DNA of 37,832 nt from a virus (IMGVR_UViG_3300036987_000262:1-37832), one strand, 5' to 3'. Counted from the stretch's first letter, positions 5,584 through 28,514 are shown. The notes: generated from the sequence alone by a model not told the origin. A program made the numbers and translations.

Positions 5584-6444
5584 TTAAGCCGTAGCAGTTG
5601 CACGCGCTCTCCCCTCCGGAAGCTTGCCGGTCATGACGTACTCCACCGCCTCGCGGGCCTGCTTGCTGGCCTTCAAAACCCATTTAGGATTATTCTGCAA
5701 AGCCTTCAGCCAGGAGCCAATATAGGCCGTGGAGTTTTGCAGGGTCTGGGATGTGTCGAGGGCGGCAATCTGGCAGAGGAAGGCGGCACCCATCTCGGCA
5801 GTGAGCTCCTCCTGGCTCCTTACGTCCTTGCCTATGTGGTAGCTGCTGACGCTATCCCGGCAGAGCCTGCCAGCTCCTCCCGTCCAGTGGGTCAGCTCGT
5901 GAAAGGCCGTGGCGTAATACTCCTCACTGCTCTCGAACTGGTCGAGGGCAGGCAGAAAAATCTTATCGCTATGCGGGAGATAATAAGCCTGCTTTGTGTC
6001 GGTTTCGATGCAGGGGCCTCTCCGCCGTAGTAGCTCCTCAGCGCCGGGGATCTGCTGATTATCCCTCTCCACCGGCACCTTTTCCGGCAGGCCTTTGGTC
6101 TGGCACCAGTTGAAGACGGTGTAGTATTTGAGGAAGTGAATGGGCCTAAGAACTACTTGCCCTTCCTTGTTTGTCTCTTCCTTGATCATACGATCTACAA
6201 AGACGATTGGCGAGCCCTTCTCCCCGGCCCGGATGGAGCCTCCCATCTTCTGGGCCTGGCGGAAGGTGAGCCAGTAGGGGCTCTCGTAATTCGACTGCAA
6301 GAGGAGGGTATTGATCCCTTGATATTCTTTGTTGGTGGCGTAGGATGTCGGGCCGTTGGAGGTCCACGGCCGGCGCCAGGGAATTATTCCACCCTCCAGC
6401 TGCTTTAGTATCTGGCCGGTCACGACCTCGAAGACGTCCTTCAT
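5584..6444 (-). CDS. ardC: ArdC-family antirestriction / ssDNA-binding protein with a zincin-like C-terminal domain
   Basis: Motifs PWRRPW, YQGIN, WLTFRQAQKMGG-I-AGEKG, YTVFN, AYY, HELTHWTG (HExxH), EELTAEMGAAFLC, AYIGSWL. Confidence 0.92.
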   Translation of the reverse strand: MKDVFEVVTGQILKQLEGGIIPWRRPWTSNGPTSYATNKEYQGINTLLLQSNYESPYWLTFRQAQKMGGSIRAGEKGSPIVFVDRMIKEETNKEGQVVLRPIHFLKYYTVFNWCQTKGLPEKVPVERDNQQIPGAEELLRRRGPCIETDTKQAYYLPHSDKIFLPALDQFESSEEYYATAFHELTHWTGGAGRLCRDSVSSYHIGKDVRSQEELTAEMGAAFLCQIAALDTSQTLQNSTAYIGSWLKALQNNPKWVLKASKQAREAVEYVMTGKLPEGRARATATA

Positions 6445-7857: not shown

Positions 7858-8158
7858 ACTGGTTGGGGTCCGCGCGCAGGAGCGTGCCTACTCGCATGCC
7901 ATGATCAACCTAAAAGGAAGCCGTACAGGAAAGCTCATGCCCCCTGATAACTGGCAGAGTCCCTGTGCCCCCTGGATTGCGGAGCAAAAAGCTCCCGCCC
8001 GGAAACGTCCTCGAATCCAAGCCTTCCCGGCGTTGAGGGAGCCCCACCCTCCCGCGCGTTTTACCGCGCGCGGCACCCCAGAAGAAGCTCAAGCAGCAGC
8101 ATTTAGGTGGAGAGGCCCCAACTGGCCCTGGAGAGGGCCATCCAGGCCCTCCTCCTAA
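7858..8158. other. ~300 bp GC-rich multi-hairpin non-coding element, copy 1
   Basis: Stems GGAGC-N5-GCTCC, CGCGCG-N6-CGCGCG, TGGCCCT-GGAG-AGGGCCA and TTAGGTGGAG...CTCCTCCTAA are conserved in copy 2, with loop changes and frame-breaking indels. Confidence 0.7.
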
Positions 8159-8174
8159 CAGTCCCGCAATCTCC

Positions 8175-8211
8175 GAAAAGTATATATGCGCAAGCGCAAA
8201 CGCAAGCGCAA
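8175..8211 (+). promoter_or_regulatory. BRE/TATA promoter (GAAAAG-TATATAT) with a GCGCAA-repeat operator; probably a leaderless transcript
   Basis: TATA at 8181-8187, then TGCGCAAGCGCAAACGCAAGCGCA running directly into the ATG at 8211. Confidence 0.8.
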
Positions 8212-8414
8212 TGGCAGAGAAGCGAGAGAAGGTAATTGACCGGATCAACGTCCCGGTCCTCGGCACGGCCAAACGTGTCCTGAACGAATTTCAGGAAACA
8301 AGAAATTACGGCTCCCAGAGCGATGCTCTCAGCGACCTGCTTCTGGACTACGGAAGGCTCCAGGAGAAAGTAAAAGAGCTTGAAGCCCAGCTTGCCGAAG
8401 CAAAGAAAGAGTGA
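8211..8414 (+). CDS. Ribbon-helix-helix-like regulator with a C-terminal coiled coil (copy 1)
   Basis: Alternating strand RINVPV, helix, SQSDAL helix, tail VKELEAQLAEAKKE. Confidence 0.75.
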   Translation: MAEKREKVIDRINVPVLGTAKRVLNEFQETRNYGSQSDALSDLLLDYGRLQEKVKELEAQLAEAKKE

Positions 8415-8460
8415 TGCCATCAGCTAATGCCTTAAAATTGCAAGAAAAATATATTGCAGG

Positions 8461-8661
8461 ATGCAAATGTCTAAACCACTTAGCGCCTACGTCCCCTGCC
8501 TCTACTGCCGGAGGGGGCCGAGAGGAGACGACCCGGACCCCTGTTCCGGTGTGCGTCACATCCGGTCCTTGCAGGCCGGCGGCTGCTTCCTGGGAGAGGT
8601 CACGCCGGGAAAAGAGGCGCTCCACGCCAAATTCATCAAGACCCTGGAGGTGAAAGCCTGA
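8461..8661 (+). CDS. Small Cys-rich (Zn-binding) protein, copy 1
   Basis: CLYC...PC...GC; frame conserved in the paralog at 9566-9766. Confidence 0.75.
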   Translation: MQMSKPLSAYVPCLYCRRGPRGDDPDPCSGVRHIRSLQAGGCFLGEVTPGKEALHAKFIKTLEVKA

Positions 8662-8921
8662 AGATCGAGCGCAGGGACGACCCCCAGACCCAAGAGCATG
8701 TGATTACGATTACCCTGACTCGGAAAGAGATGGTTCGGGCAAGCGACGAGATGACCCCGGCTGAAAAAGAGACCACCTATCTCATGAGCCAGAGCCCATT
8801 GCCCTCCACTCAAATCTGCTCCCTGGTTGAGATTGTATCCGCCCTTGAGAAGGCCGATGCCAAGGCGGCCATGAGCCAGGACGCCCTAATGGATGATGAG
8901 GAGAATCAGGATGACCTCTGA
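8658..8921 (+). CDS. Hypothetical acidic protein, copy 1 (probable CTG start)
   Basis: GGAGGTGA SD, then an in-frame CTG overlapping the upstream TGA; conserved in the paralog. Confidence 0.7.
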   Translation: MKIERRDDPQTQEHVITITLTRKEMVRASDEMTPAEKETTYLMSQSPLPSTQICSLVEIVSALEKADAKAAMSQDALMDDEENQDDL

Positions 8922-8924
8922 GCG

Positions 8925-9260
8925 ACTGATTGGGGTCCGGCGCGCAGGAGCGTGCCTACTCTCACATCCTCATAAACCTGGAAGGAAGCCGTACAGGAAA
9001 ACTCATGCCCCCTGATTGCTGGCAGAGGCCCTGTGCCCCCTGAATTGCGGAGCGAAAAGCTCCCGCCCCGGAATTGCCGCCGCATGAAAGGTCCCCCGTG
9101 TATGGGGTTAGGGGAAGCCCGCACGGCGTGTGAGTGCGCCCCAACCTTCCCGCGCGTAACACCCGCGCGCGGCACCCCGGAAGAAGAAGCTCAAGCAGCA
9201 GCAGTTAGGTGGAGAGGCCCCCACTGGCCCTGGAGAGGGCCATCCGGGCCCTCCTCCTAA
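8925..9260. other. ~335 bp GC-rich multi-hairpin non-coding element, copy 2
   Basis: Same stems as 7858-8158, with a different and longer internal segment. Confidence 0.7.
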
Positions 9261-9275
9261 TCATGTAGTAATCTG

Positions 9276-9321
9276 CATAAGTTTAAATATCTAGCTAGCT
9301 TTTATAGTTAGCTAAAGCTAG
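9276..9321 (+). promoter_or_regulatory. TATA promoter (TTTAAATA 9282-9289) with a TAGCTA/AGCT-repeat operator
   Basis: CTAGCTAGCTTTTATAGTTAGCTAAAGCTAG lies between the TATA box and a GGAGG SD. Confidence 0.75.
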
Positions 9322-9334
9322 GAGGTTTTAAAAA

Positions 9335-9520
9335 ATGGGAAGAAACCGGCTATCCGTAACTATTTCAGACGAGGCCAAAGAGGTCCTGGTAGGATACCAG
9401 ATGGATCACAGGATCAAGACAAGAGATGATGCCACAGAAGCCTTGCTATTCGACTATGAGAAACTCTCGAAGAGGGTAAAGGAGCTTGAAGCCCAGCTCG
9501 CCGAAGCAAAGAAAGAGTGA
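9335..9520 (+). CDS. Ribbon-helix-helix-like regulator with a C-terminal coiled coil (copy 2)
   Basis: RLSVTISDEAKEVL...TRDDA; tail VKELEAQLAEAKKE identical to copy 1. Confidence 0.8.
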   Translation: MGRNRLSVTISDEAKEVLVGYQMDHRIKTRDDATEALLFDYEKLSKRVKELEAQLAEAKKE

Positions 9521-9565
9521 TGCCATCAGCTAATGCCTTAAAATCACAAGAAAACCGATTGCAGG

Positions 9566-9766
9566 ATGCAAATGTCTAAACCACTTAGCGCCTACGTCCC
9601 CTGCCTCTACTGCCGGAGGGGGCCGAGGGGAAGCGACCCGAACCCCTGTTCCGGTGTGCGTCACATCCGGTCCTTGCAGGCCGGCGGCTGCTTCCTGGGG
9701 CAAGTCACGCCGGGAAAAGAGAGGCTTCATGCCAGGTTCGTCAAGACCCAGGAGGTGAAAACCTGA
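9566..9766 (+). CDS. Small Cys-rich protein, copy 2
   Basis: Paralog of 8461-8661. Confidence 0.75.
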   Translation: MQMSKPLSAYVPCLYCRRGPRGSDPNPCSGVRHIRSLQAGGCFLGQVTPGKERLHARFVKTQEVKT

Positions 9767-10026
9767 AGATCGAGCGCAGGGACGACCCACAGACTACAGA
9801 GCATGTGATTACGATTACGTTGACTCGTGAAGAGATGGTCCGGGCAAGCGACGAGATGACCCCGGCTGAAAAAGAGACCACCTATCTCATGAGCCAGAGC
9901 CCATTGCTCTCCACCCAAATCTGCTCCCTGGTTGAGATTGCATCCGCCCTTGAGAAGGCCGATGCAAAGACGGCCATGAGCCCGGACGCCCTGATGGATG
10001 ATGAGGAGAATCAGGATGACCGCTAA
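9763..10026 (+). CDS. Hypothetical acidic protein, copy 2 (probable CTG start)
   Basis: Paralog of 8658-8921. Confidence 0.7.
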   Translation: MKIERRDDPQTTEHVITITLTREEMVRASDEMTPAEKETTYLMSQSPLLSTQICSLVEIASALEKADAKTAMSPDALMDDEENQDDR

Positions 10027-11554: not shown

Positions 11555-11655
11555 CTGATGCCATCTGGGCCCGGAACCAAAGCGAAGCCAAGACCAGATT
11601 GGCTAGCCTGCAGAGAAGCCGGGCCGAGAGCCTTCGGCAGAAAAATCATGACTGA
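11551..11655 (+). pseudogene. Chimeric 34-codon mini-ORF / recombination scar
   Basis: The first 16 nt are identical to the ASCH gene start (11648-11663); 11564-11611 matches 10350-10397 at 46/48. Confidence 0.7.
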
Positions 11656-12052
11656 TGCCATCTTCTCGATCAAGCACCGCTACGCAGAGCGCATTTACAG
11701 CGGCCATAAGTGCGTGGAGTTGCGGCGAACGGCTCCAAAGACGCCCATAGAGCGGGCCTGGATCTACGAAACAGCGCCGGTAAAAAAGGTTACAGGCTGG
11801 TTTGAGCCCGGCCTGATTTATCCAGCGATGGACTGCGAGGCCCTCCTGGAGAGCTTCGGAGAGGAGAAATGCCTGGGGATGCAGATCGCCGGGACCAAGG
11901 AAGAGCGGCTCCTGGCGATGATCGAGGCCCTGGGAGACAAGCCTCTGCATGCAATCAGTATCAAAAGAGCCCAGAGAATACGCCCGGTGGAACTGCGCAT
12001 CCGGCCACCGCAGAGCTGGATGTACTGCATGAAGACAGAAAAGCTCGGTTAG
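11648..12052 (+). CDS. ASCH (PUA-like) domain protein
   Basis: IFSIKHRYAERIYSGHKCVELRR, IYETAPVKKVTG, PPQSW.Y. Confidence 0.85.
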   Translation: MTDAIFSIKHRYAERIYSGHKCVELRRTAPKTPIERAWIYETAPVKKVTGWFEPGLIYPAMDCEALLESFGEEKCLGMQIAGTKEERLLAMIEALGDKPLHAISIKRAQRIRPVELRIRPPQSWMYCMKTEKLG

Positions 12053-12383
12053 AAGTGCCTCCGAAGATACCGGCCTGCCGGAGACGGCACCTTTGCACTC
12101 CCGGCTATCTCGCCGCAGCCGTGACCACCGAGGAGAGAGGGTGGGGTCCGGGGAGGGGGAGAGGAGGACCTTTTTGAACGAGGATGAGAAGTAGGCACGA
12201 GCAGGTGCGTGTTCACTTGGGCCTGGTCCAACCAGCCTGAAGAGAGGGTGACGGTGAGGGTAACAGTCTGCGAGACCACCGAGCCGGCAAAAGGGGAGTC
12301 TAAAACCCTTGCTGTGCCCCCCCGCCCTGCACACCCAGCCCTAGATGCGAGTAACTGGATCTTCAGGATCTGGTTTGCGTTCC

Positions 12384-12571: not shown

Positions 12572-15500
12572 TCAGTCACCTATCCATATTGCGTTGTAAT
12601 TGCTAACAACCTCTTCTGTTATTGGATATTCAAGACATTTTGAGTAAGTATCTGATTGTTCTTTGATGCCCAGTGAGTCCAATGCTGCGTCGAAGTAGTA
12701 CTCAGCTTTGATATATTCCTCCATGGCATTCTGTGCAGCCTGGAGGGCGTCTAGGTAATCTTCGTGATAAGCATCAGCTTCTGCGGCGGCGTTCCGGGCA
12801 TTTTGAAGGTAGGTTGCTGCATCTGCCTGTAGCTGTGTTGTGTCGTGGGCATCATAGATTGATTCTGCCCTGATATAGTCCTCCATGGCATTTTGTGCAG
12901 CCTGGAGGGCAGCCAGGTAAGCTAAATGATAAGCATCAGCTTCTGCGGCGGCGTTCTGGGCATTTTGAAGGTAGGTTGCTGCATCTGCTTGTAGCTCTGT
13001 CGTGTCGTGGGCATCATAGATTGATTCTGCCCTGATATAGTCCTCCATGGCATTTTGTGCAGCCTGGAGGGCGTCCAGATAATCTTCGTGGTAAGCATCA
13101 GCTTCTGCGGCGGCGTTCTGGGCATTTTGAAGATAGGTTGCTGCATCTGCCTGTAGCTGTGTTGTGTCGTGGGCATCATAGATTGATTCTGCCCTGATAT
13201 AGTCCTCCATGGCATTTTGTGCAGCCTGGAGGGCGTCCAGGTAATCTTCATGATAAGCATCAGCTTCTGCGGCGGCGTTCTGGGCATTTTGAAGGTAGGT
13301 TGCTGCATCTGCCTGTAGCTGTGTTGTGCCGTGGGCATCATAGATTGCTTCAGCCGCATCATAATTATCCATCGCCTCATTTACTATTGCCATTGCTTCC
13401 AGGCCATCGTAATATTCGGCTTGATCCAGGCAGGCATTCGCATTTTCTAAATAGGTTGCAGCATCTGCGTAAAGTGAAGTCGGGTCGTATGCATTGTATA
13501 TTGATTCTGCTGAATTGTACTCATTTAATGCATCTTCTGCAATTTGTGTAGCTTCATTGCCCAATGCAAAATAATAGTCTACCTGGCCCATGCAGTCGCT
13601 TGCATTTTGGGTATATGTTGCCTGATCTGCATAAAGTGGAGCCGGGTCGTATGCGTTGTATATTGCTTCTGCTGCATCGTAATTATCCATCGCCTCATTT
13701 ACTATTGCCGTTGCTTCCAGGCCCAGGCCCTCATAATATTCGGCTTGATCCAGGCAGGCATTCGCATTTTCTAAATAGATTGCAGCATCTGCGTAAAGTG
13801 AAGTCGGGTCGTGTGCGTTATATATCACAGCAGCGGCATCGTACTCCGCTAATGCACTTTCTGCAATTTGTATGGCCTGGTTTCCTAAATCATTGTAAAA
13901 ATCTCGATTATCATAACATTCTATTGCAAGATCAAAGCACTGCTCGGCTTCTAAATAGCATTCATCTGCTTCATCGTATTGCCCGTCCTCATAATACTCA
14001 TCCCCGAGTGCAGCCCATTCCATCCCCAGGTCGTAATTCTCATCGCCCAAGTCCTGGTAATCGTTAGCCTCCAGATAGGCCGCTTCTGCTTCATCTAGTG
14101 CCTCGTTTGCAATCGCACTGCACTCTACCATTATATCCCATTGCTCGGCCTGGATATCTTCGCACTCTGAAGCCGTTGCATTTGCTTCTTCTGCTAATGT
14201 TATCCAATCTGCTGCAAGATTGCAGTATTCATTATATGCAATATAAGCTGCATCTGCCTCTCCCTGAGCCTCTTCTGCTATGTTGAGATATTCGTCCATC
14301 AGTTCTTGCTGCTCTGCCTGGATGTCCTCATACAGAGATGCCAAAATTGCTGCTTCTTCTGCCAGGTCAAGCCAATCATTGCATAGATCCAGCCAAGATG
14401 CGGATTCTGCATATGCTGCCTCTGCTTCATCTAATGCATCATTTGCAATATCTTCTGATTCTGTCATGATTGCTTGCTGTTCTGCCTGAATATCTTCATA
14501 CTCTGAAGCAGTTGCATTTGCTTCTTCTGCTAATGCGGTCCAGTCGTCGGCTAGATCACAGTAATCTTGATATTCAGCATAGGCTGCTTCTGCTTCTCCC
14601 TGAGCCTCTTCTGCTATGTCGAGATACTCCGCCATCAGTTCCTGCTGTTCTGCCTGGATGTCCTCATACTCAGCTATCAGAAGCATTGTTTCGTCAGATT
14701 CTGCTTGCCATCCAGCAGCTAAATCGAGATAGTATTCCTCAGACTCAAATGCATCTGCCGCAAGAGCCTGCTGAGCTACTACTATTGCATCGGCTGCATC
14801 CATGAGGGCTCGCTGTTCGGCCTGGATTGCCTGGTATTCTGCGATCGCGTCTAAGGCAGCCTCATACTGGGCCTGCCATCCATCAGCAACTCCCCGGTAA
14901 TATTCCTCAGACTCCAATGCATCTGCGGCAAGAGCCTGCTGAGCTACTACTATTGCATCGGCTGCATCCATGAGTGCTCGCTGTTCGGTCTGGATTGCCT
15001 GGTATTCTGCGATCGCGTCTAAGGCAGCCTCATACTGGGCCTGCCACCCATCAGCAACTCCCCGGTAATATTCCTCAGACTCCAATGCATCGGCTGCAAT
15101 AGCCTGCTGAGCTACTACTATTGCATCGGCTGCATCCATGAGGGCTCGCTGTTCGGCCTGGATTGCCTGGTATTCTGCGATCGCGTCTAAGGCAGCCACA
15201 TACTGGGCCTGCCATCCATTAGCAACTCCCCGGTAATATTCCTCAGATTCTAAACAATCGGCTGCAATAGCCTGCTGAGCTACTACTATTGCATCGGCTG
15301 CGTTCATCAAAAGTTGCTGCTCGTCTAATATCGATTCTTCATTTGCATTTTCGTCTTTTACTTCCTCTAATATTGATCTAAGCGCTTCCAGTTTTGCCCT
15401 GCTGATGCAGGTTATCTCAGTTTTGTTCCACGAGCATTTGCAAAGATTGTGAGCTGGCAGCCTGTAAGGCTCTGTATCTGTGTTTGTTGCATATGTTTTG

Positions 15501-15589
15501 CCCATGTTGTCCAGGCAAGCTGGACATGATCCTGCTTCAGCAGAGCCTTCGTGAATCATTATTGTAATTTCTTCAACTGAGCAGGTCAT
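12572..15589 (-). CDS. 1005-aa acidic alpha-helical repeat protein with an N-terminal MuF-like Zn motif; predicted long antiparallel hairpin
   Basis: N-terminal CPAC...GKTY...LPAHNLCKC, about 8 x 56-aa repeats, a YEDGQY turn, then about 7 x 54-aa repeats; GGAGA SD. Confidence 0.85.
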   Translation of the reverse strand: MTCSVEEITIMIHEGSAEAGSCPACLDNMGKTYATNTDTEPYRLPAHNLCKCSWNKTEITCISRAKLEALRSILEEVKDENANEESILDEQQLLMNAADAIVVAQQAIAADCLESEEYYRGVANGWQAQYVAALDAIAEYQAIQAEQRALMDAADAIVVAQQAIAADALESEEYYRGVADGWQAQYEAALDAIAEYQAIQTEQRALMDAADAIVVAQQALAADALESEEYYRGVADGWQAQYEAALDAIAEYQAIQAEQRALMDAADAIVVAQQALAADAFESEEYYLDLAAGWQAESDETMLLIAEYEDIQAEQQELMAEYLDIAEEAQGEAEAAYAEYQDYCDLADDWTALAEEANATASEYEDIQAEQQAIMTESEDIANDALDEAEAAYAESASWLDLCNDWLDLAEEAAILASLYEDIQAEQQELMDEYLNIAEEAQGEADAAYIAYNEYCNLAADWITLAEEANATASECEDIQAEQWDIMVECSAIANEALDEAEAAYLEANDYQDLGDENYDLGMEWAALGDEYYEDGQYDEADECYLEAEQCFDLAIECYDNRDFYNDLGNQAIQIAESALAEYDAAAVIYNAHDPTSLYADAAIYLENANACLDQAEYYEGLGLEATAIVNEAMDNYDAAEAIYNAYDPAPLYADQATYTQNASDCMGQVDYYFALGNEATQIAEDALNEYNSAESIYNAYDPTSLYADAATYLENANACLDQAEYYDGLEAMAIVNEAMDNYDAAEAIYDAHGTTQLQADAATYLQNAQNAAAEADAYHEDYLDALQAAQNAMEDYIRAESIYDAHDTTQLQADAATYLQNAQNAAAEADAYHEDYLDALQAAQNAMEDYIRAESIYDAHDTTELQADAATYLQNAQNAAAEADAYHLAYLAALQAAQNAMEDYIRAESIYDAHDTTQLQADAATYLQNARNAAAEADAYHEDYLDALQAAQNAMEEYIKAEYYFDAALDSLGIKEQSDTYSKCLEYPITEEVVSNYNAIWIGD
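12686..13333 (-). repeat. 4 x 162-bp coding tandem repeat (54 aa)
   Basis: GTGGGCATCATAGATT recurs at 12845, 13007, 13169 and 13331. Confidence 0.95.
14648..15319 (-). repeat. 4 x 168-bp coding tandem repeat (56 aa)
   Basis: The unit QRALMDAADAIVVAQQA... recurs at 168-bp spacing. Confidence 0.95.
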
Positions 15590-15610: not shown

Positions 15611-16942
15611 CTATATCTCTTCAATCATGCCATCGAAGAGAGTCAGCTCCATAACATCCCCCCCGAGTCGATTATATTCAAATGCCTTTCCCAGGATACG
15701 CATATTGTACTGTCCATCGTAGGGCTCACTGGTGATGGTGACCCTCACAAAATCGCCTGCCATCAGTGTCCAGTCTGGCAGTGCCCAGATCTTCAGGTAT
15801 CTCTCATCTCCAATCTGGCTTATGGTCGTATGTGCTCGAAATTCCAATTGCGTATCTGCCATGTTTGTTCTATATGGCACAAATTCTTTGTAAATTCCAC
15901 CCGCAAGTGGATCATCCTGGCCAAGCGCTTTCAGGCGTCCCCATCTCTTGGGTGCATACAGAGTATAGTCTATGATACTTGCCGAGCCACGCAGTATTAT
16001 TGAATCGAATCCGAATTTTGTATCATCCATTGTGCCGGTCTCGAAATCAATGAGATCTGCCTCGACGTAAGTTTTTGCAGGCGAGTCATACCACCCGTTG
16101 TAAAGTCTGCCCATCGCTGCATCAAGATTCTGGTCTCCGTCTGCCCGATTTGTGAAGCGGAATTCCAGGCCCTGGTTATCATAGAGCCTTGCAAACGTAG
16201 TCCAGATCCTTTCGTTGGGCACATCCATTCCAGGATCAATCAAGTTGTCTTCTGAGAGGATCCCTGCTTTTAGATGATTGTTCTTCCATCCAATTATGTA
16301 GCACGGATAATTCTGAGGATCTCCCTCTGGCGCAGCTACACCAGTCCTGACATAGAGTCTTTCTGTATCCCTGAACCACTGGTTAATTGCCATCCCTGCC
16401 AGGCTCGCCGCTTTTGTAAGAAGCGTTGCCCCTAAATAAATTACAGGATCTGCTGCAGGAATCCGGGGGGTGTATAGCGCATTCGTGCCCGCCTGTCTCA
16501 TGCAGTATGTCCCTGCTGGAGAGCCTTCATAATATGACACCTCCCAGCCACTTGAGAGGGAACTTGCCTGGAAGAGCAAGCCTTGGGTGGTTACATCGTC
16601 CCCCAACATCTCATCTACAGTAACCGTGCTTGCATAATTCTTTTGGAATGCGTGCCTGTAATTCAACAGTTTTGAGAATCCAGAGCAATGATATTGCTGA
16701 GGCAGCCCAGACTTGAATGAAGGTCTCTTGATGCGGTCGAAAAACCCGCAGAATACAGGCATAGTCTGCCCTGACTTATGGACGTTTATTCTTGCTCTCT
16801 CATCGATCAACTGGCCATCATAACATTTGAAGCTCAGGCTCTGGTGTCCCCCGAGTGGCCAATCTGCTCGGTATTCGGTTGGATTAAGTTCTATCACCGA
16901 TGCGTCCGGGTTTGTTACCGTGAATAATAATCCTGTTGCCAT
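15611..16942 (-). CDS. Putative tail hub / baseplate-hub-like protein
   Basis: 443 aa, beta-rich; position after the neck genes; hub-like patterns VFCGFF.RI, C.GFS.LL and a C-terminal LMAGDFVRV...MRILG...MELTL. Confidence 0.55.
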   Translation of the reverse strand: MATGLLFTVTNPDASVIELNPTEYRADWPLGGHQSLSFKCYDGQLIDERARINVHKSGQTMPVFCGFFDRIKRPSFKSGLPQQYHCSGFSKLLNYRHAFQKNYASTVTVDEMLGDDVTTQGLLFQASSLSSGWEVSYYEGSPAGTYCMRQAGTNALYTPRIPAADPVIYLGATLLTKAASLAGMAINQWFRDTERLYVRTGVAAPEGDPQNYPCYIIGWKNNHLKAGILSEDNLIDPGMDVPNERIWTTFARLYDNQGLEFRFTNRADGDQNLDAAMGRLYNGWYDSPAKTYVEADLIDFETGTMDDTKFGFDSIILRGSASIIDYTLYAPKRWGRLKALGQDDPLAGGIYKEFVPYRTNMADTQLEFRAHTTISQIGDERYLKIWALPDWTLMAGDFVRVTITSEPYDGQYNMRILGKAFEYNRLGGDVMELTLFDGMIEEI

Positions 16943-16949
16943 TTTTACC

Positions 16950-17975
16950 TCATGGTGCGACTGTAAAGCTTATAGTCGTCCTTGCATCATAGCTTCCTTT
17001 GCCTGCATGTTTCCCATCTATGACATCAACCCGGATACTGTTTGTTCCGGAATCTGCAAGTTTCGGCTTCCAGCGTATCCAATTTTGTGTTATCCAGAAA
17101 CTCAGATCCTTCCAGTACGAGGCTCCAGGCGGCTGATGCCAGAACTTGTATTGCAGTTCATTTCCATCCGGGCTTGATGCTGTGCAGATGATATCTATCT
17201 CGATCCCCGGTGGCTGGGGGCTTGCCAGGCACGCAGCCAGGCTGGTGATTGTCGGCACTGTTCCTATGGCGGCTGCGGCTGTTATCGTGTAACTAGCAGT
17301 TGTGCTTTGGTCTGCTGCCCCTTTTGATATGCCTCCCCGCACCTGCACTGTGATAACAGAGGCTCCTACATCCTGGTCTCGACTCCGCCAGGAAAAGCTA
17401 TTACGAGTCTGCCAACCCGTCATATCTCGGGCTACTGAGCCAGTCCCTGGCCCAGTTACGAAAAAGCGATACTCCAGGCCCTGCGAAGGCGTCGCAGCTG
17501 CAATGAATATAATCTCCTGGCCGGCACCCTGGGGGCTGGCAACTGAAGGTGTGAGGGACAAGGTGTAGCTGACTTTTACATGGCAATGTACCTCAAGGCG
17601 GCAGCGGAAGGCCGCAATATTTTTGTCAAAGGCTACCTCCCCCTGGACCTTAAGGACCTCGGCACCAGAAAATCCATCGTCCAGAATAGTACGTACTGTA
17701 TCGGCAATCTGGGCGCAATACTCAGCCCCTCTGTCGCCTGCGGTCTCTTTCCTGGTCCTGATGTCCACGATGAATATTTGGTCTGCAGAAAGGATCTGGC
17801 CGCTCATGTTCGATAGCTCGCAGGAGATCTGGCTTTTGGTGACGGATCCATTGATATCTACCGCACTGGCTGAGATGGCTTTGTTCTTGAAGATCTTGGA
17901 ACTAACCAGAGCCATTAGTGCCGAATTGCCGGTTAATGCTGCAAGCAAATTATCTAGTGGTGTGTAGCCTGCCAT
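16950..17975 (-). CDS. Putative tail-terminator-like domain fused to two Ig-like (Y_Y_Y-type) domains
   Basis: N-terminal ~135 aa (L..NSALMALVSSKIF...FIVDIRT...QIADTVRTILD), then two repeats SPQ..G.EI...A....GLEY.F...W...N...W......G...I.V.V. Confidence 0.6.
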   Translation of the reverse strand: MAGYTPLDNLLAALTGNSALMALVSSKIFKNKAISASAVDINGSVTKSQISCELSNMSGQILSADQIFIVDIRTRKETAGDRGAEYCAQIADTVRTILDDGFSGAEVLKVQGEVAFDKNIAAFRCRLEVHCHVKVSYTLSLTPSVASPQGAGQEIIFIAAATPSQGLEYRFFVTGPGTGSVARDMTGWQTRNSFSWRSRDQDVGASVITVQVRGGISKGAADQSTTASYTITAAAAIGTVPTITSLAACLASPQPPGIEIDIICTASSPDGNELQYKFWHQPPGASYWKDLSFWITQNWIRWKPKLADSGTNSIRVDVIDGKHAGKGSYDARTTISFTVAP

Positions 17976-17984
17976 CGTTCTCCC

Positions 17985-18305
17985 TCAAATCATGAACTGC
18001 CCTAAGTATGCCTTCCTCATATGTTCCGGTCCCATGCTCGGATCTTTGCCCAGGCCAATCACCGGCCAGGAGTAGCCGCCTCTCGTGATTAGGTCGTCTC
18101 TCTCAAGCGGGTCAGATGTCAGAATATAGGCAATCTGTTGCAGCTGCCTGCCCTCTTCAGAGGAGAATGGCCTTACCTCATCGTACCACAAAACAGTAAT
18201 TTTAGAGTCTGAATAAACTGGATCCACGTTTGCATCTACGCCTGTTTTGTGCCGCCAGATAACAGATTCTCCCATCGAATCCTTGTATGCATCTAATAAT
18301 CCCAT
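17985..18305 (-). CDS. Putative head-closure (stopper) protein
   Basis: 106 aa, beta-rich; ESVIW....GVD...PVY...DDLI...G.SW.V; directly upstream of the terminator-like gene. Confidence 0.6.
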   Translation of the reverse strand: MGLLDAYKDSMGESVIWRHKTGVDANVDPVYSDSKITVLWYDEVRPFSSEEGRQLQQIAYILTSDPLERDDLITRGGYSWPVIGLGKDPSMGPEHMRKAYLGQFMI

Positions 18306-19434: not shown

Positions 19435-20337
19435 CTAATTCCACCTCCGGATATATTGACTCATAAAGACTGGGATAACTATAGCGGAAGACCCCTCTGA
19501 ATATACTTCAGTTGCAGAGAGTACTGTGATTCCTTGGCTATTTAGACCACCCATACAAATTGCATTTGATGAGCTGCCGCCTCCTGCTAATTGGTATCGT
19601 CCAGTTAATAAATCGCCACCATTTGCCCAGGCAGTGCCGTTATATACCTCTGTTTTTTTGGTTGCTCCATAAGGGGACCAAATCATGCCAGCTGTACAAA
19701 TTGCATCGGTAGAATTGCCGCCTCCTGCTGCCCCCTCTCTCCCTACCCCAAGGTTTCCACCAGTTCCCCAGGCAGTGCCATTATATTCTTGGGTTGTAAT
19801 GAAGTCTTCGAGATCACCGGTACAAAAAGCATCTGACGAATTGCCGCCGCTTACGGTATGATATACCTCTGTGCCAAGATCCCCTCCCGCACCCCAGGCC
19901 GTTCCATTAAGTTCTTCCGTTGTTACGAGGTAACTTTGCTCTTGATTTTCATCCATCAGGTGGCCACCCATACAAATTCCGTTTGAGGAGTTACCGCCAC
20001 CCGCTGGACGCTGTCGTTTTGATGCTAAATTAGGACCAGAACTCCAGGTAGTGCCATTATATTTTTCAGTTTCTAGAGTCGGTTGATAATCATTTGTATC
20101 TAGGCCACCCATAACAATTGCATCAGTTGAGTTGCCCCTCCCCACAAATTCAATCCGTACTATTGATACATCACCGCCAGAACTCCAGGCAGTGCCGTTA
20201 TATTCCTCAGTTTTAGCAGTATCATCATAAGACCCATCCATGCCCCCCATACAAATAGCATCTTGGGAATTACCGCCACCTCCCAGTTCCATTCTTGCGG
20301 TTGCTAAGTTTGCTCCCGCACTCCATGTCCCTGTCAT
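19435..20337 (-). CDS. Kelch-like six-blade beta-propeller protein (candidate adhesin / receptor-binding protein)
   Basis: About six ~47-aa repeats TEEYNGTAW..GGDL...R...GGGNS..AICMGG. Confidence 0.85.
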   Translation of the reverse strand: MTGTWSAGANLATARMELGGGGNSQDAICMGGMDGSYDDTAKTEEYNGTAWSSGGDVSIVRIEFVGRGNSTDAIVMGGLDTNDYQPTLETEKYNGTTWSSGPNLASKRQRPAGGGNSSNGICMGGHLMDENQEQSYLVTTEELNGTAWGAGGDLGTEVYHTVSGGNSSDAFCTGDLEDFITTQEYNGTAWGTGGNLGVGREGAAGGGNSTDAICTAGMIWSPYGATKKTEVYNGTAWANGGDLLTGRYQLAGGGSSSNAICMGGLNSQGITVLSATEVYSEGSSAIVIPVFMSQYIRRWN

Positions 20338-20338
20338 T

Positions 20339-20998
20339 TCAGGCACCACGGAGAAGTTTCTTTGATCTTTCGACTAGCTGTTGTGGTAGTTTGATATTGC
20401 GTCTCTCGCATTCAGCAAGCATGGTCCTAGCCTGGGCTATGACATTTATGGCCCCTCCTACGTCATTTCCTGCTCTACAGGCCGCTGGTAACTCCCAGAG
20501 ATATCGTAAAGTAAGGCCCTTCAATTCATCTGCGTCTTTATCATTGATATCAAAATCATCGGACTCAGCGAGATCCTCCTTGATTTGGGACCACATTTTT
20601 AACTCTCTGATACGTTCTTCGCCGTCCTTGCGCATCCACATAAGTTTAAACTGGAGCCTGTCCCTCTTTACTTCTAGTTTCCTTAGTTTAGAGCCTTCTG
20701 CCTTACTCAATTTAATTAGAACTTCGTCTAGCTCAATATTAGTAAGTCGATAATTAAATGAGAGTCCCATGAGGTTTTCAAACATCACCAACTGCTCGCG
20801 TTTTGCTTGATGATATTTGCTTGCCGCGGTAGGGTGTTTGACATCATTTAAAATACTGAAAAGGGCTTCAGTAGTTGTCCTGTAGATTGTATGGCTCTGG
20901 ATGGCCGTTTCAATCTCTGGGATCAGCCCTTGTAGTGAGATCTGATCTTCTTTGGAGAGAACACAACTTTCTACAATATTCTTTAGGGCGTCTGACAT
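20339..20998 (-). CDS. Helical/coiled-coil hypothetical protein coupled to the kelch gene (219 aa)
   Basis: Abuts the kelch gene; FSILNDVKHPTAASKY.Q..REQ motif. Confidence 0.75.
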   Translation of the reverse strand: MSDALKNIVESCVLSKEDQISLQGLIPEIETAIQSHTIYRTTTEALFSILNDVKHPTAASKYHQAKREQLVMFENLMGLSFNYRLTNIELDEVLIKLSKAEGSKLRKLEVKRDRLQFKLMWMRKDGEERIRELKMWSQIKEDLAESDDFDINDKDADELKGLTLRYLWELPAACRAGNDVGGAINVIAQARTMLAECERRNIKLPQQLVERSKKLLRGA

Positions 20999-22588: not shown

Positions 22589-23083
22589 TTACCTTAATCT
22601 CGATCCCAGATACTTTCGCAATATTTTGCGAGCTACAGAGCTTTGCAAGTACTGACTGCCTGCACCTACTACAAAAGTCTCTGATAGTTTGCCAGAGAGA
22701 GCAAAAGACTGCACCCCCTCATCTTGTAACCTCTTGCGGCCACCTAGACCAGCAAGATAGATCTCTAACGCCTCTTCGATGCATGCCGATTTAACATCCT
22801 GGGGGACTATTGCAAGCCCACTGGAGCTGTTGTAGTCCAGGATCACACCATCGATAATTCGGGGGAACGCCCTTTTCTGATCTAGGATACCAGCAGTTAT
22901 GCCTGTATCGTATTTTGTGCCCCTAAACTTCCCTGAATCAATAGCCTGGGTGGCCCGGTTCAGGTAAGAGGTCTTCTGAGGGTCTGCTAACGCCAGAAAT
23001 TCTGCTGCCCGGCCATCCCCTGCTAAGTAGGTTGCCATTTCGGCCAAAGTCGCATAGGCGTCTAATACGGGTGGATTGGCCAT
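22589..23083 (-). CDS. Head-tail adaptor/connector protein
   Basis: AYATLAE...YL, L.RAT.AID..F.G.K, Q...FPR, VPQDVK.AC.E.A; located shortly after the major capsid gene. Confidence 0.75.
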   Translation of the reverse strand: MANPPVLDAYATLAEMATYLAGDGRAAEFLALADPQKTSYLNRATQAIDSGKFRGTKYDTGITAGILDQKRAFPRIIDGVILDYNSSSGLAIVPQDVKSACIEEALEIYLAGLGGRKRLQDEGVQSFALSGKLSETFVVGAGSQYLQSSVARKILRKYLGSRLR

Positions 23084-23103
23084 AATGCACACCTAAAAAA
23101 AGA

Positions 23104-23727: not shown

Positions 23728-24597
23728 TTAGTTGAAGTTGCACGTCATGACGCCCAAGCACGCCGGCTTCACTACTTTTCTGCCGAACACGTACTGCCCG
23801 TCTACCTTTCTGGCATACTGCTTTTCCATCGGCAGGATACGAGTATCATCTACCTGAGATGCGAAGGTTATGGCATTCTTAGTGCCGAACAAGATCTTGT
23901 CCAGTGTCCCGTTGGTGTTAGGCACGTTGTTGGATACCAGTAGCTCAAATCCTCCAATGTGGCCAATCGAGCCGTTTAAGATTGATGGAGTTGCCACAGT
24001 TGGCGCGCTGGAACCCTGATCGTGAAGGTCGTTTACAATTAGTGCCTCCATCTCGGGAGGTATGATCATCCACTTTGGCGTCGCTGCCGGCACCTTGGAC
24101 TTTTTGAGCTTGGTTCCGCAGTCCGTGATTAACTTGAATATGTTGGAGGCGTCTCCCTTGGTTACGTTGGGTGTCTTGGGGGAGGCATCAGACCCAACCA
24201 GATTAGCGGCACTGGCATCGACATAACAAGAAGCCACAGCCAAATCTACTGCATCAGCCAAGGCATAAGCTGCCTCTACGTTGACCTCATCCATTAGGTT
24301 AATTTTGGTTTGCGCTTCATCTTTTGTGGGGATCTTGAAGTTATAACCCTTCTGGAAATCAATCGTCAGATGCGTATCTGTATCCGCAATGGTTTCAGGG
24401 TCAGGCATATCGACATTATCAACTATATCGAATACAGTAACTCCGCCGATGCCGGTTAGGCGCACACTCTTAGCGTACTTTACGGACCCCTCAAAATTGT
24501 GATTAATCACGCCTTCCTGGGCAAAAACTAACACCCCTTGTAGTTGGTGTTGCACCTCCAACGCCACTACTTCTTCTTTAAACGATTCATAAGCCAA
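23728..24597 (-). CDS. Major capsid protein (HK97 fold, P22-coat-like family)
   Basis: 289 aa; N.NFEG.V...SVR, LTID.QK...F, AAYALAD.VD, KVP, NG.IG.I.GF....SNN.P, AITFASQ, G..VFG.KVV.P. Confidence 0.9.
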   Translation of the reverse strand: MAYESFKEEVVALEVQHQLQGVLVFAQEGVINHNFEGSVKYAKSVRLTGIGGVTVFDIVDNVDMPDPETIADTDTHLTIDFQKGYNFKIPTKDEAQTKINLMDEVNVEAAYALADAVDLAVASCYVDASAANLVGSDASPKTPNVTKGDASNIFKLITDCGTKLKKSKVPAATPKWMIIPPEMEALIVNDLHDQGSSAPTVATPSILNGSIGHIGGFELLVSNNVPNTNGTLDKILFGTKNAITFASQVDDTRILPMEKQYARKVDGQYVFGRKVVKPACLGVMTCNFN

Positions 24598-24615: not shown

Positions 24616-25359
24616 TCATTCTCTTACTCGTCCTTCTGCTTCTGCTCGCTTAATATCGGCCAGCACTTCTGCAGTTATGGTTCCAGTCTTGCGAAGTTCC
24701 CGGACCTTTGCCGCAGTCCAAATTGTCTTTCCCTGCTGGCCTCCATTCTGCAATCCCTGGTTCCCAGCCCCTTGTGCATTTCCTCCAGCTCCTTGTGCAG
24801 CCCCGTTACCCTGCTGGCCTTGCTGTTGCTGGCCTTCCTGGGGCAGCATTTTGGCCTGAGCCAGGGCTTCAAGGCTGGCGTTGATCTCTGTAGGAGTCGT
24901 TCCGGCAATGTTCAGGAATTGCAGCAGTACCGGGATCTGACCCGATGGAACATTGCGCTGCATGAGGGCCTTCATCTTGGCCAGTTCCAGGTCAGCACCC
25001 TTTAGCGTCTCGCCCTTCGGCTCCTCTTTGGGCTTCTTGCCGGCTGCCAGGAGAGCCTTTGCGTCTGCGAGCGGCATTCCGAGCGCAGTTTCGAAGTCTG
25101 CTAAACTCATTTTAGCTTCTTTTTGCTGATTCCCTTCTTGACCAGAACCTTGGCCCTGGTCTCCCTGGCCTCCTTGTGCTGCACCTTGTCCTGTTCCTTG
25201 ACCCTGACCCTGGCCACTCTGACCAGAGCCCTGGCCCCCTTGTCCAGTACCCTGGCCTGAGCCTTGACCTGCTCCTTGGCCTGCTCCTTGACCTGCTCCT
25301 TGACCTGCTCCTTGACCCTGGCCACCCTGGCCTTCTCCTGCGTTTCCTTCATTTTCCAT
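24616..25359 (-). CDS. Putative capsid scaffolding protein with Gly/Gln low-complexity tracts
   Basis: Lies between the minor and major capsid genes; GQGA repeats; C-terminal DIKRAEAEGRV helix. Confidence 0.75.
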   Translation of the reverse strand: MENEGNAGEGQGGQGQGAGQGAGQGAGQGAGQGSGQGTGQGGQGSGQSGQGQGQGTGQGAAQGGQGDQGQGSGQEGNQQKEAKMSLADFETALGMPLADAKALLAAGKKPKEEPKGETLKGADLELAKMKALMQRNVPSGQIPVLLQFLNIAGTTPTEINASLEALAQAKMLPQEGQQQQGQQGNGAAQGAGGNAQGAGNQGLQNGGQQGKTIWTAAKVRELRKTGTITAEVLADIKRAEAEGRVRE

Positions 25360-25441: not shown

Positions 25442-26224
25442 TTACAAGATCAGTATGTTGTGGATGCAATTGGGGTGAAATATGCCCCCTGCCCTGGCAT
25501 CATCCAGAGTAGGATAGCCAGGTGTCTTGCCTGTCAGGCTCACAATCCGCCCCGCCCAATCCAGGCAATTTTCGCAGGTATAGCTTGTTGATTCGTCTGT
25601 TATCTGAACTAAATCCTGCTCATGTTCTAGGGCTCTGATTTCAGTTCCCTCAAGCATGGCCTCTCTTGTTACCAGTTGCCCCAGCATTTCTACGTAGGTT
25701 ACAATATTCCACTGTTTCCCGGCTGCATCTTTGAATCCGGTTATCCCCTGTTCTGCCAGCTTTTCCCTTTGGGCTTGAGCTACTTGCTCCAGGGTGTCTC
25801 GTTCTGATAACTCGCCTTTGAGTTGCTCCATGGAGAGAAGTCTAATAACCTGCTCCACTCGGCGCTTAATAACCGAATCGACCTCAACGAAGCTCTCAAA
25901 AGCATTGTCTGCCAAGATTTCTTTAGCTTTCTGAAACTGTGGTGTGGCTTCTTTGCTGCCCAAGGATCTGTCCACTTCAGAGGCAGCGAGATCAAAGAGC
26001 ATTTCGATTGCCTCATCACACCAGATGCGACTGCCGGCTAAGACTTCTTGCCTGATGAGATTGATATTCCGCTGTAAATCTGCCAGCTTTTGAAGATTGT
26101 TTGGAGCAATGAGGGCGTTGTTGTACTCTTTTAACAAATCCTTTTCAGCACCCTCGTACATTTGCACCAGGCGCTTTGCTTGGGCACCCGATAATGAGGA
26201 TTGCTGAATTGTCAGCTTAGCCAT
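25442..26224 (-). CDS. Phage minor capsid protein (MuF / Gp7-related)
   Basis: GITGFKD.AGKQW...YVEM, CENC..WAGRIVSLTG.TPGYPTL, GIFHPNC.H. Confidence 0.9.
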   Translation of the reverse strand: MAKLTIQQSSLSGAQAKRLVQMYEGAEKDLLKEYNNALIAPNNLQKLADLQRNINLIRQEVLAGSRIWCDEAIEMLFDLAASEVDRSLGSKEATPQFQKAKEILADNAFESFVEVDSVIKRRVEQVIRLLSMEQLKGELSERDTLEQVAQAQREKLAEQGITGFKDAAGKQWNIVTYVEMLGQLVTREAMLEGTEIRALEHEQDLVQITDESTSYTCENCLDWAGRIVSLTGKTPGYPTLDDARAGGIFHPNCIHNILIL

Positions 26225-27602
26225 TTAACTCCAGAGGAGGGAGCCTGCTCTTCGGTACAATCAGGGCAGCTTGCACACCACGCAGCCTGCCCAATTCTAT
26301 CTCATAAGCTTCGCTGCCTTCTTTTAGGCCCTGCAGTTCGAGCTTGCGTTCTAATGAGATTGCGCCCATTGCATCCCAAAGTTGTGCTGCTTTAGCGATC
26401 TCAATCTGGTCCTCAGGTATTCCGTCCTTGAGCTTGACGTGAATATCTTTGATTGCCACAATGGGAGGGTGCAATTGGGACCACAGATTCAGCACTCTTG
26501 GTATTGCTTCCTCTGCAGCTCGGGCATACTTTCCTACCTGGGCCAGGGTGGGGATGAGCCTGAATTTCAGGGCAGTCCCTGATACCGCAGCGCCGGCGTC
26601 CTTTCCTGCTAAAAGAACCTTGCTAAGCTGGAGCATCTGCAAGAGCTGATCCATCTTTTGCTCAATGGCTGCCTCTACATGGGCGAGCTGGGCGTCCCAG
26701 ACCATCAGGCCAGGCGGTACGTCCCCCGGCATTGTAAATATGGGCTCTCCCGGCCGGTAGACCCACTCACCCAGGCCGTGATCAAATACCGTGGCACTCT
26801 CCGGGATGATTGGTGTGGGCGCAGTAAACTTGGATTGCACCTCATCCCGTTCCGCAAATGAGATCTCCAGGGATTCGATTAAAGAGAGGATCGATGGCTT
26901 GTAATCCGAGCGCCCATAATATCGCTCACTGGAGAGCTGATTTTGCACATGGACCACCAAGACACTATCCACCTCTGGATTTTGTATGCCAAATTCATTA
27001 GCCGTTATGCTTGCAAATGCCAGGAAGTTGCTGAGCGGCACCGGTCCCGCTAATTTTGATCTGGCCAGCTCAAATACCAAGTGCTGGATCTGCCCTTTTG
27101 AGTGGATCGTGAACTTGATATATTCGCATTCCTTTCCATCAATATTTTTCTGTTTAAATTTAGCAAATAATACAAAATGCGTTATATCCTGAATGTTTGC
27201 TGGAGAGACTACCAGATACATATTTTCAGGATTGATAACCGCTATTCCTGTATCTGAAATCTCAAAGGCACCATGACCGTAGCGGCTGGCATCAATAAGG
27301 ACTTGATCATCTGGGCGTTTGGGGATAACCTTCATGGCCTCGGCTTTAACCTCTATCGGTTCGCCGAATGTGAGGTTTAAATAAGTCGTAGTGGCCAATT
27401 CAGGCCAGTCCAGGATGATTACTTGCTTTTTTTCGTTCTCTGCTTTGTCGGCAAGATAAGCAGCATAACGCGGGAAGACCTGGTCATGCAGCCCGTTATA
27501 AATCTGCCTCATTAGCGCGTGCTCAGTTATTCTGGCCGCCTCATCTTTATCCTCGGGAGGCCAGGGTTTGCCATCCCCAATAAAGCCCAGATCATTTAGC
27601 AT
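26217..27602 (-). CDS. Portal protein (SPP1 Gp6-like)
   Basis: 461 aa; WPP, YGRSDY, WDAQL, SGTALK, DGIP.D; lies between terminase and minor capsid. Confidence 0.9.
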   Translation of the reverse strand: MLNDLGFIGDGKPWPPEDKDEAARITEHALMRQIYNGLHDQVFPRYAAYLADKAENEKKQVIILDWPELATTTYLNLTFGEPIEVKAEAMKVIPKRPDDQVLIDASRYGHGAFEISDTGIAVINPENMYLVVSPANIQDITHFVLFAKFKQKNIDGKECEYIKFTIHSKGQIQHLVFELARSKLAGPVPLSNFLAFASITANEFGIQNPEVDSVLVVHVQNQLSSERYYGRSDYKPSILSLIESLEISFAERDEVQSKFTAPTPIIPESATVFDHGLGEWVYRPGEPIFTMPGDVPPGLMVWDAQLAHVEAAIEQKMDQLLQMLQLSKVLLAGKDAGAAVSGTALKFRLIPTLAQVGKYARAAEEAIPRVLNLWSQLHPPIVAIKDIHVKLKDGIPEDQIEIAKAAQLWDAMGAISLERKLELQGLKEGSEAYEIELGRLRGVQAALIVPKSRLPPLELNG

Positions 27603-27818: not shown

Positions 27819-28514
27819 TTAATGCACCCTCCTCTCTAGGTCAGATTTATTCGGTTTCGTATCCAAAACGCCCGTTCTCCTTGGGCGTCTGGAATAGCGG
27901 TACTCGCCATACCAGGCAGATAGAGCCAGGCACAAAACCAGGTCGTCATGCTCAGATTCCCGCCATGCTGAATAAGAATCATGGCCAATGGTGTTTATCT
28001 TGAGCTTGAGGTTGGTTAATTCTCCTTTCAGTGGCTCGGCTAGTGGCAATGCCTCCGCTACCTTAATTCGCTGTGACTGGTAGATAGCCAGCAGGGCAAA
28101 GACCAGATCCCTTTTTGGTACATGGTAGCCCCCAATTACACGAGAGGGCGTATGGCCTGCTGTGATGGTAATTTCTATGACTTCCTTGTTTAGCGCAATC
28201 AGGCCGCTAGTGTCAGGTTTCATGAGTTTGGGATTGAACATATCACAAACCGGAGCCCCTACCCCAGTTTTATCAATGATTAGCAGGGGCGGTTCGCTGG
28301 CTTGCAGTTCCGGCTTTTTCAGTAGCGCCTCGACCTTCTCCACAATCAAAGGGTACGGCATCCCCCGCACCCGTTCCAGATAAGGTAGCTCATACTCGAA
28401 TCTGTGCCTCGACTCAATAAACTTCTGATGCAGGATGCCAAGGGCCGTGTAGTCGTTGGCCTGTCCTAGATCCAGGCCGACTAAATAGCGATGCTCTTGT
28501 TTAGGCGATTGCAA
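27819..28514 (-). CDS. terL: Terminase large subunit, stand-alone RNase H-like nuclease domain
   Basis: GLDLGQANDYTA, IDKTGVG, HDDLVLCLAL; own GGAGGT SD 8 nt before the TTG at 28514. Confidence 0.88.
   Translation of the reverse strand: MQSPKQEHRYLVGLDLGQANDYTALGILHQKFIESRHRFEYELPYLERVRGMPYPLIVEKVEALLKKPELQASEPPLLIIDKTGVGAPVCDMFNPKLMKPDTSGLIALNKEVIEITITAGHTPSRVIGGYHVPKRDLVFALLAIYQSQRIKVAEALPLAEPLKGELTNLKLKINTIGHDSYSAWRESEHDDLVLCLALSAWYGEYRYSRRPRRTGVLDTKPNKSDLERRVH

Follow-up and report, generated by a model that had tools for sequence, protein, structure and literature searches.

A repeat-built, polyacidic protein from a virus of presumed sheathed methanogens: a candidate tail-tip needle with matched arms

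What might a virion do with a very long, strongly acidic, repetitive protein encoded at the end of its structural gene cluster? This question is raised by the 37.8-kilobase (kb) virus record IMGVR_UViG_3300036987_000262 (here the window, meaning the whole analyzed stretch of 37,832 nucleotides [nt]), which is rated 53% complete and whose minus strand carries an uninterrupted head-tail operon. The final gene of this operon (positions 12572 to 15589) encodes a protein of 1005 amino acids (aa), referred to below as the rod protein; its segments and the virion genes given by coordinates lie on the same strand. We propose, with a probability of roughly 0.5, that in a short-tailed virus of the Methanothrix type the rod protein would serve as a needle or stalk pointing outward from the tail tip. 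That the chain folds back as a hairpin is, taken separately, very probable.

The composition of the rod protein is strongly biased, with 221 D+E residues against 22 K+R residues and 22.9% Ala, in agreement with a preliminary description of this locus, in which the rod was called very poor in Lys and Arg. Self-identity was maximal at a lag of 56 in the N half (0.63) and at a lag of 54 in the C half (0.60), and the gene contains DNA tandem arrays with periods of 168 and 162. The protein is laid out as eight 56-aa units, a unique TPR-like turn centered at aa 535, and eight 54-aa units. The outer N-arm (aa 88 to 311; 14657 to 15328) comprises four 56-aa units and the inner N-arm (aa 312 to 535; 13985 to 14656) four alternating ones; Pro is absent from the N-arm, and its heptad period is 3.505. 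The TPR-like helix-turn-helix (aa 522 to 548; 13946 to 14026) has Gly536 at its center and contains the YEDGQY motif, correctly placed near aa 534 before and found to begin at aa 533. Beyond it lie the inner C-arm (aa 538 to 751; 13337 to 13978), composed of a turn unit and c1, c2, c1 units of 54 aa, of which each later one begins with an H/Y-D-P helix break; the outer C-arm (aa 752 to 967; 12689 to 13336), with four 54-aa units; and a C-terminal cap with the conserved Cys985 (12572 to 12688), predicted to return to the base of the rod. The turn matches 9 of 10 positions of what we take to be the TPR consensus, at a single site in the protein (the next best site matches 6); no TPR match was obtained with Pfam, and there is one motif only, not the tandem 34-aa repeats that define TPR proteins.

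Some details of the preliminary description needed revision. The outer N units are indeed four and 56 aa long, but they span aa 88 to 311 and are 61 to 96% identical, the innermost being a hybrid, rather than near-identical; the four outer C units, at aa 752 to 967, are 81 to 98% identical. The repeat counts are mirrored about the turn as described and, when the turn-adjacent unit is counted, amount to eight N and eight C units. The third inner C unit is 2 aa shorter in the window strain and full in P0002/P0009 (P and L numbers denote related proteins and loci, respectively). The N and C units, previously regarded as dissimilar, are at most weakly alike (z of 2.3 to 2.7 versus shuffles, near the z of 3.3 between outer and inner N units), as would be expected from common heptad patterning. 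The longest exact repeat within the gene is 101 base pairs (bp). Two further alleles (P0002/P0007 and P0009) share the 8/8 layout, each with its own unit-specific substitutions; contigs of four sequencing runs did not span the gene, and in one run of a related strain the N arm is joined with two fewer units. The highest hydropathy in any 19-aa stretch was 1.16, and sequence analysis of the rod protein found neither a signal peptide nor a membrane segment.

How the chain folds can be approached through its relatives, which include four diverged long lineages, 30 to 48% identical, and short forms of 229 to 265 aa with the same base domain and, in most cases, the terminal Cys. The N arm was taken as the stretch between the invariant Trp54 and the turn, and the C arm as that between the turn and the last Cys, which is conserved. 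The N/C arm lengths in the long lineages were 257/235, 370/349, 481/450-452, and 537/507 aa, and arm lengths fitted N = 33 + 56n and C = 20 + 54n with equal n (fitted N/C units, 0.93/0.94, 4.0/3.98, 6.02/6.09, 8.0/7.96-8.0, and 9.0/9.02). Distinct lineages hold 1/1, 4/4, 6/6, 8/8, and 9/9 units, and the chance that five classes would pair correctly at random is 1 in 120. The 785-aa (6/6) and 733-aa (6/5) forms, which come from the same or near-same strains with possible assembly collapse, were excluded from this count because the genes for the neighboring baseplate-hub-like protein differ by 0 and 16 nt and because L016 corresponds to the window gene with two clean deletions. The rod family was present in 6 of 105 host-family genomes, with two further weak matches (one a true MuF protein), and in 1 of 401 genomes of the phylum, namely, the seed genome itself.

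Furthermore, the order of the units is mirrored about the turn. Similarity among N units was compared with similarity among C units, the turn unit being omitted. Mirror order gave a rho of 0.86 (p 0.004) in P0002 and P0009, where parallel order gave 0.47 to 0.49, and a rho of 0.67 (p 0.016) in P0004 and of 0.79 (p 0.05) in P0005; parallel order was below mirror order in all six proteins compared without the turn unit, although adjacent units resemble each other in any repeat array. Thus, the N- and C-arm repeat counts co-vary among homologues, and the earlier proposal that length changes by matched duplication at two loci is well supported by the equal unit counts and the mirror order.

The structural prediction for a 234-aa short form (P0052), made with 16 aligned sequences, had a predicted local distance difference test (pLDDT) score of 91.9 and a predicted template modeling (pTM) score of 0.70. 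The model has a small beta-rich base, a helix (residues 66 to 138), a five-residue turn, a second helix (144 to 213), and a short terminal helix, and residues 66 to 216 superpose on antiparallel coiled coils at 2.0 to 3.6 Å. The top fold match was a chemoreceptor (Z 13.7, 3.6 Å), and others were a dynein stalk (Z 13.4, 2.0 Å, 141 residues), an SMC arm (Z 12.9, 2.0 Å, 151 residues), colicin E9 (Z 10.3, 2.2 Å, 131 residues), and TcA chains (Z 10.4 to 10.5). Because Z values of such size are common among helical proteins, these matches show geometry, not kinship. With this model, Foldseek returned no PDB or BFVD entry at E ≤ 0.001, the base domain being barely tested there; a viral fold search from the poor full-length model (no match at E ≤ 0.001; template modeling [TM] score ≤ 0.13) was disregarded. 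The fold-back antiparallel rod that had been postulated, and its length, are well supported, the short form being predicted as a closed hairpin, although the full-length model is poor.

The C-arm, interrupted repeatedly by an Asp-Pro or Asp-Thr break, completes 16 turns in each 54 aa; if about two residues of a 54-aa unit are extended, its calculated span would equal the 8.3 nm of a helix of 56 aa. Rod lengths in the family, estimated in proportion to the N-arm, are about 11, 36, 53, 69, and 78 nm. The window's rod is computed at ~69 nm, within the 65 to 70 nm estimated earlier, with a net charge of -194, or -2.8 elementary charges (e) per nm. Across the rod forms, which have no membrane segment, the charge is -2.1 to -3.3 per nm, the short forms having 8 to 10% Lys/Arg and -2.1 e/nm.

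The idea that mirrored Cys pairs staple the two arms fared less well. The sums reported for these pairs are correct (344+720=1064, 403+666=1069, and 456+612=1068), and the outer 4+4 units do contain one Cys only, Cys112. However, pair 344/720 duplicates 456/612, so that the independent pairs are two, with a chance of about 0.049, and N-arm Cys 112, 476, and 490 are without a mirror partner. Mirrored partners of N-arm Cys residues number 3 of 7 in P0002, 0 of 8 in P0047, 0 of 6 in P0004, 0 of 2 in P0046, and 1 of 3 (7 off) in P0005. Stapling is therefore weakly indicated in the window (p about 0.05), and it is ruled out as a family feature by the missing mirror partners in other lineages. Disulfides are possible in the host envelope according to sections of PMC11576556; packing of small residues explains the mirrored pairs equally well, and C3 and C985 are better clasp candidates than the mirrored arm Cys pairs.

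We also characterized the base domain (aa 1 to 64; 15398 to 15589), which has a MuF-like zinc (Zn)-type motif in aa 22 to 54. In nine aligned rows, C3, H13, C22, C25, P41, Y42, H47, C50, C52, and W54 are invariant, so that the Cys/His motif of the MuF C terminus (C22, C25, H47, C50, and C52) is present in 9 of 9. In hhalign, the base profile matched a true MuF protein with 88% probability (E 3e-6, 39 columns) and the window's own minor capsid protein with only 7%. Relatives weakly match model positions 65 to 110 of 112 (the last 45) in the MuF models PF04233 and TIGR01641, the best of them reaching 15.9 bits against a cut-off of 29.6 and 18.6 against 39.65, respectively, with the C-terminal part only; no full MuF1 or MuF2 domain above cut-off was found, and the rod protein of the window itself gave no match. 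In the portions of PMC5576092 that define the family, a MuF gene lies directly downstream of the portal gene. The rod gene does not; that slot is taken by the MuF2 minor capsid gene (PF06152; 25442 to 26224), which adjoins the portal gene (26217 to 27602). Because of the profile match to a true MuF motif and the weak matches to the last 45 model positions, the base is a MuF-derived module, not a MuF protein, and the motif suggests that it may bind Zn. The previously noted resemblance of the N terminus to MuF/SPP1-gp7 proteins is thus real for the C-terminal Zn-type motif, whereas the rest of the domain is absent. In P0060, the same MuF-derived base is fused to an unrelated Cys/His-containing domain of ~350 aa.

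The gene order bears on the function of the rod. The operon begins with the genes for the terminase (two open reading frames [ORFs]), the SPP1-type portal, the MuF2 minor capsid protein, the capsid protein, and the Ad1 adaptor; genes for a closure-sized protein of 106 aa, a terminator-like protein of 341 aa, and a protein of 443 aa follow, with the rod gene last. In an ESM Atlas structure search, in which both sides are predicted models, the 443-aa protein (15611 to 16942), immediately upstream of the rod gene, matched the gp27/YQBQ/GPD fold with TM scores by row of 0.73 to 0.79 in the best rows over 290 to 338 residues, and it has a baseplate-hub fold (YQBQ/GPD/Sipho_Gp37-like). At most loci with a hub, the position behind it is occupied by a putative fiber gene of ~260 aa, whose product has a coiled coil at the N terminus and a body rich in beta structure. 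A survey of this slot in 96 rows, duplicates included, gave 45 rows with a hub and fiber similarity, 28 with a hub and the Zn base, and 13 with a propeller-like gene and the Zn base. Full-length fiber and Zn-base genes never occurred in one locus, the four overlaps being fiber relics of 50 to 58 aa, and tight coupling to tip genes was seen in all 39 rows in which the base is accompanied by a tip gene upstream, as well as in 2 relic rows. Decayed relics of the 260-aa gene lie just downstream of the rod or short-form gene in L001 (14730 to 14867), L092 (10797 to 10955), and L082 (62 to 208), and none was detected in the window.

The hubs of the fiber viruses form a separate 100/100 clade (one row with a bad frame was dropped from the tree). 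The capsid protein of the window is 93% identical to those of the 9/9 virus and a short-form virus, 89% identical to that of a fiber virus, and unrelated to that of the 4/4 virus. Since tip genes reassort against head genes, the rod travels with the tip module, not with the portal or capsid, which favors an outward needle or stalk. Among the roles listed in the preliminary description, a ruler and a DNA mimic fit poorly and a conduit keeps some likelihood; we infer from the gene slot and the exchange pattern a tail-tip appendage instead.

The needle or stalk may be pictured as follows. The chain would reverse at aa 535 to form a single antiparallel coiled coil of two helices, ~69 nm long and closed at a small MuF-derived metal-binding base where both chain ends are predicted to meet. 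A continuous N helix (56 aa and ~8.3 nm per unit) would pair with a segmented C helix, in which the Asp-Pro/Asp-Thr break lets 54 aa span the length of a 56-aa N unit. The base would dock on the tip (the hub or the propeller-like protein), with the TPR-like turn pointing outward to make first contact across the host sheath or matrix, perhaps as in the P22 needle or the colicin R hairpin, and the length would be retuned in steps of ~8 nm, only matched duplications or deletions being kept. The host is presumably a sheathed methanogen, because the genomes holding relatives carry the titles Methanothrix, Methanotrichaceae, or Methanosarcinales.

Several observations weigh against this proposal. 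A MuF-type motif usually marks a head protein. In three long lineages, conservation was no higher at the tip (39 to 61%) than in the arms (36 to 56%), and the full-length single-sequence AlphaFold2 model is poor (pLDDT 47.6, pTM 0.26). Mirror order reached a rho of only 0.47 (p 0.09) in P0047, the 4/4 form P0046 has too few units for that comparison, and a same-strain assembly, P0010, is mismatched (6/5), one result against strict matching. The 260-aa slot-mate gave no family or structure match in databases, its fiber nature being our interpretation. Besides, the short forms lack a hub (0 of 4 records) and lie beside the propeller-like gene, so the docking partner is not constant.

An alternative, which we consider unlikely, is that hairpins packaged in the virion or held at the neck assemble laterally into a tube with an acidic lining, which would take the place of the tail tube and carry DNA across sheath and S-layer. 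In viruses that have lost both tail tube and tape measure, several hairpins on a recycled MuF Zn module would then form the whole DNA path across the Methanothrix sheath, its length being adjusted in 8-nm steps through paired duplications at two sites within one gene. Pfam, PHROG, and PF06199 searches (0 of 1 for the last) found no tail-tube or tape-measure gene in the window, and eight related loci tiled gene by gene contained none of that type between the closure and tip genes, as a conduit would predict. Helical-hairpin channels do exist, TcA chains being among the fold matches; the MuF protein of SPP1 binds the portal, according to the sections of PMC5576092 on that phage; and encapsulated proteins are proposed for sheath crossing in the Discussion of PMC11576556. 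On the other hand, the rod has no hydrophobic segment for membrane entry, most sister viruses with the same neck have no rod gene, 11-nm and 78-nm forms both occur within one host family, and the rod gene follows the tip module, not the head.

It is rather improbable that the rod is injected as a polyanionic mimic of DNA that would sequester host restriction enzymes or other defenses that bind DNA. A two-helix rod is about as wide as DNA, and the net charge of -194 (-2.8 e/nm overall) would suit such a role, the hallmark of mimics of the Ocr or ArdA type being surface carboxylates at the spacing of DNA phosphates. The charge density is, however, about half that of B-DNA (-5.9 e/nm), and the Lys/Arg-containing short forms reach still less. 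MuF fusions have been proposed to bring cargo into the host, as parts of PMC5576092 describe. Against this role, the rod gene is late and swaps with a fiber-like gene, the element already encodes ArdC, and mimicry gives no reason for the quantized length.

The quantized length and the adjoining hub gene would also suit a tape measure, in which three hairpins (six helices) would determine how long a tube of the terminator-like protein becomes; in the portion of bioRxiv 10.1101/2024.12.09.627619 that treats HFTV1, a hexameric coiled-coil tape measure docks in the hub. This role is very doubtful, as the rod gene comes after the hub and not before it (closure, terminator-like, hub, rod), no tube gene was found by the above searches, and viruses with a 70 to 77% identical terminator domain have no rod or the 11-nm form. 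Matches of short forms to PHROG tape-measure families fall on generic coiled-coil stretches and were rejected.

Matched counts and mirror order fit pairing between chains as well as within one, so that arms of separate molecules could in principle form straight antiparallel dimers or filaments of ~140 nm with the same co-variation; the unique TPR-like turn, with Gly536 at its center, and the closed hairpin of the short-form model make this highly improbable. A role outside the virion, for instance as a scaffold (secreted or cytoplasmic) or a lysis helper, is hardly credible, for although the gene is last in the operon and dispensable in sister viruses, its product has no signal peptide or membrane segment and the tip-gene coupling is tight in all the rows counted above.

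Other genes of the operon complete the picture of the virion. The 341-aa protein (16950 to 17975) has a tail-terminator-like N domain and triple-tyrosine-type domains, the terminator-like assignment being weak (a homologue matches PF11367 at E 0.015), and the 106-aa protein (17985 to 18305), without a family match in Pfam or PHROG searches, is a probable head-closure protein by size and position. Ad1 (22589 to 23092), the major capsid protein (23728 to 24597), and the terminase large subunit (27819 to 29310) are encoded farther upstream; the last is apparently two overlapping ORFs (ATPase, 28501 to 29310; probable nuclease, 27819 to 28547), which recur in L019 and L020 and are therefore conserved rather than an error. 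A siphovirus-type neck and hub (or propeller-like gene) without a tube or tape-measure gene between them is seen in the window (15611 to 18305), L019, L020, L012, L092, and L095. A six-repeat propeller-like protein (19435 to 20349) lies among variable genes between the adaptor and closure genes, and a probable scaffold protein (24616 to 25359) has long Gly-Gln low-complexity tracts whose length varies among relatives.

A GC-rich element of ~100 bp follows the slot gene in rod, short-form, and fiber viruses (12067 to 12167 in the window, no strand assigned; L012, 14958 to 15059; L019, 12160 to 12264; L092, 10730 to 10838). It occurs in 28 of 96 sequences with 79 to 93% identity outside the window's own strain, in two copies in L029 and L082, had no Rfam match, and is possibly a recombination landmark, a terminator, or a small RNA. 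The other arm of the window carries an ArdC-type anti-restriction gene (5584 to 6444) and an ASCH-domain gene (11558 to 12052). Positions 7865 to 8920 and 8933 to 10020 form a degenerate tandem duplication of ~1.1 kb (85 to 96% identity in blocks), and a 42-bp tandem repeat closes the record (37706 to 37832). Signal-peptide-like, beta-rich ORFs in the window (30621 to 31115; 164 aa) and L003 (6751 to 7497; 248 aa) fall in the size range of viral sheath-like proteins given in sections of PMC11576556.

For the route by which viruses reach the membrane of sheathed methanogens, the Discussion of PMC11576556 suggests encapsulated proteins, and the rod family is a concrete candidate. The virions of this group seem to have a siphovirus-type neck and hub that no tube connects. 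The natural length series, about 11 to 78 nm, makes length readable against gene size in micrographs. The family also offers a clean example of paired evolution in two unlike repeat arrays, separated by 1 to 2 kb, and a natural blueprint for a single-chain 2-nm rod of programmable length. No family model or solved homologue of the rod protein was found in Pfam, PHROG, NCBIfam, or PDB sequences, where matches such as CaMBD were low-complexity noise, and no published description was found in a search of open-access literature; an ESM Atlas search with a 565-aa form gave no usable match, which shows neither absence nor novelty.

Compared with known systems, the rod shares with siphovirus tape measures a long helical repeat protein near the hub gene. 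However, it is predicted to fold back, has no membrane segments, and lies downstream of the hub, instead of between tube or chaperone genes and the hub with a tube gene present. With MuF/SPP1 gp7 (PF04233, PF06152, and TIGR01641) it shares the C-x2-C...P-x-H-x2-C-x-C motif, although its base lacks the first ~64 domain positions, scores far under the cut-offs, has the motif N terminally and away from the portal gene, and adds the invariant C3 and H13 and the terminal Cys. SMC/Rad50 arms, the dynein stalk, and the colicin R domain are likewise long intramolecular antiparallel coiled coils with both ends at one base; the rod differs in having tandem repeats and no ATPase, hinge, or toxin domain, and at 3 to 16% identity the likeness is one of geometry only. 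The chemoreceptor cytoplasmic hairpin is also antiparallel, and hairpin length change by symmetric insertions and deletions in both arms is already known from it, in 7-aa steps, as passages of PMC5907407 describe. The rod, a viral protein, instead changes by tandem duplications; its units are unequal (56 and 54 aa), its length varies fivefold to sevenfold, and such paired duplication over a sevenfold range was not found in print within the same literature scope. Finally, P22-like gp26, according to sections of PMC3741392, is a coiled-coil shaft 2 to 3 nm wide that projects from the tip of a short-tailed virion, carries exchangeable tips, and varies by whole heptads (11 to 16; 22 to 32 nm). The P22 protein is a parallel three-chain coil, whereas the rod, whose short form models as an antiparallel hairpin, is a predicted intramolecular one of 11 to 78 nm, polyacidic and with a Zn-type base; no gp26 homology was found in Pfam, PHROG, or PDB-sequence searches. 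By analogy, we favor the view that the rod may work like P22 gp26 without belonging to the gp26 family.

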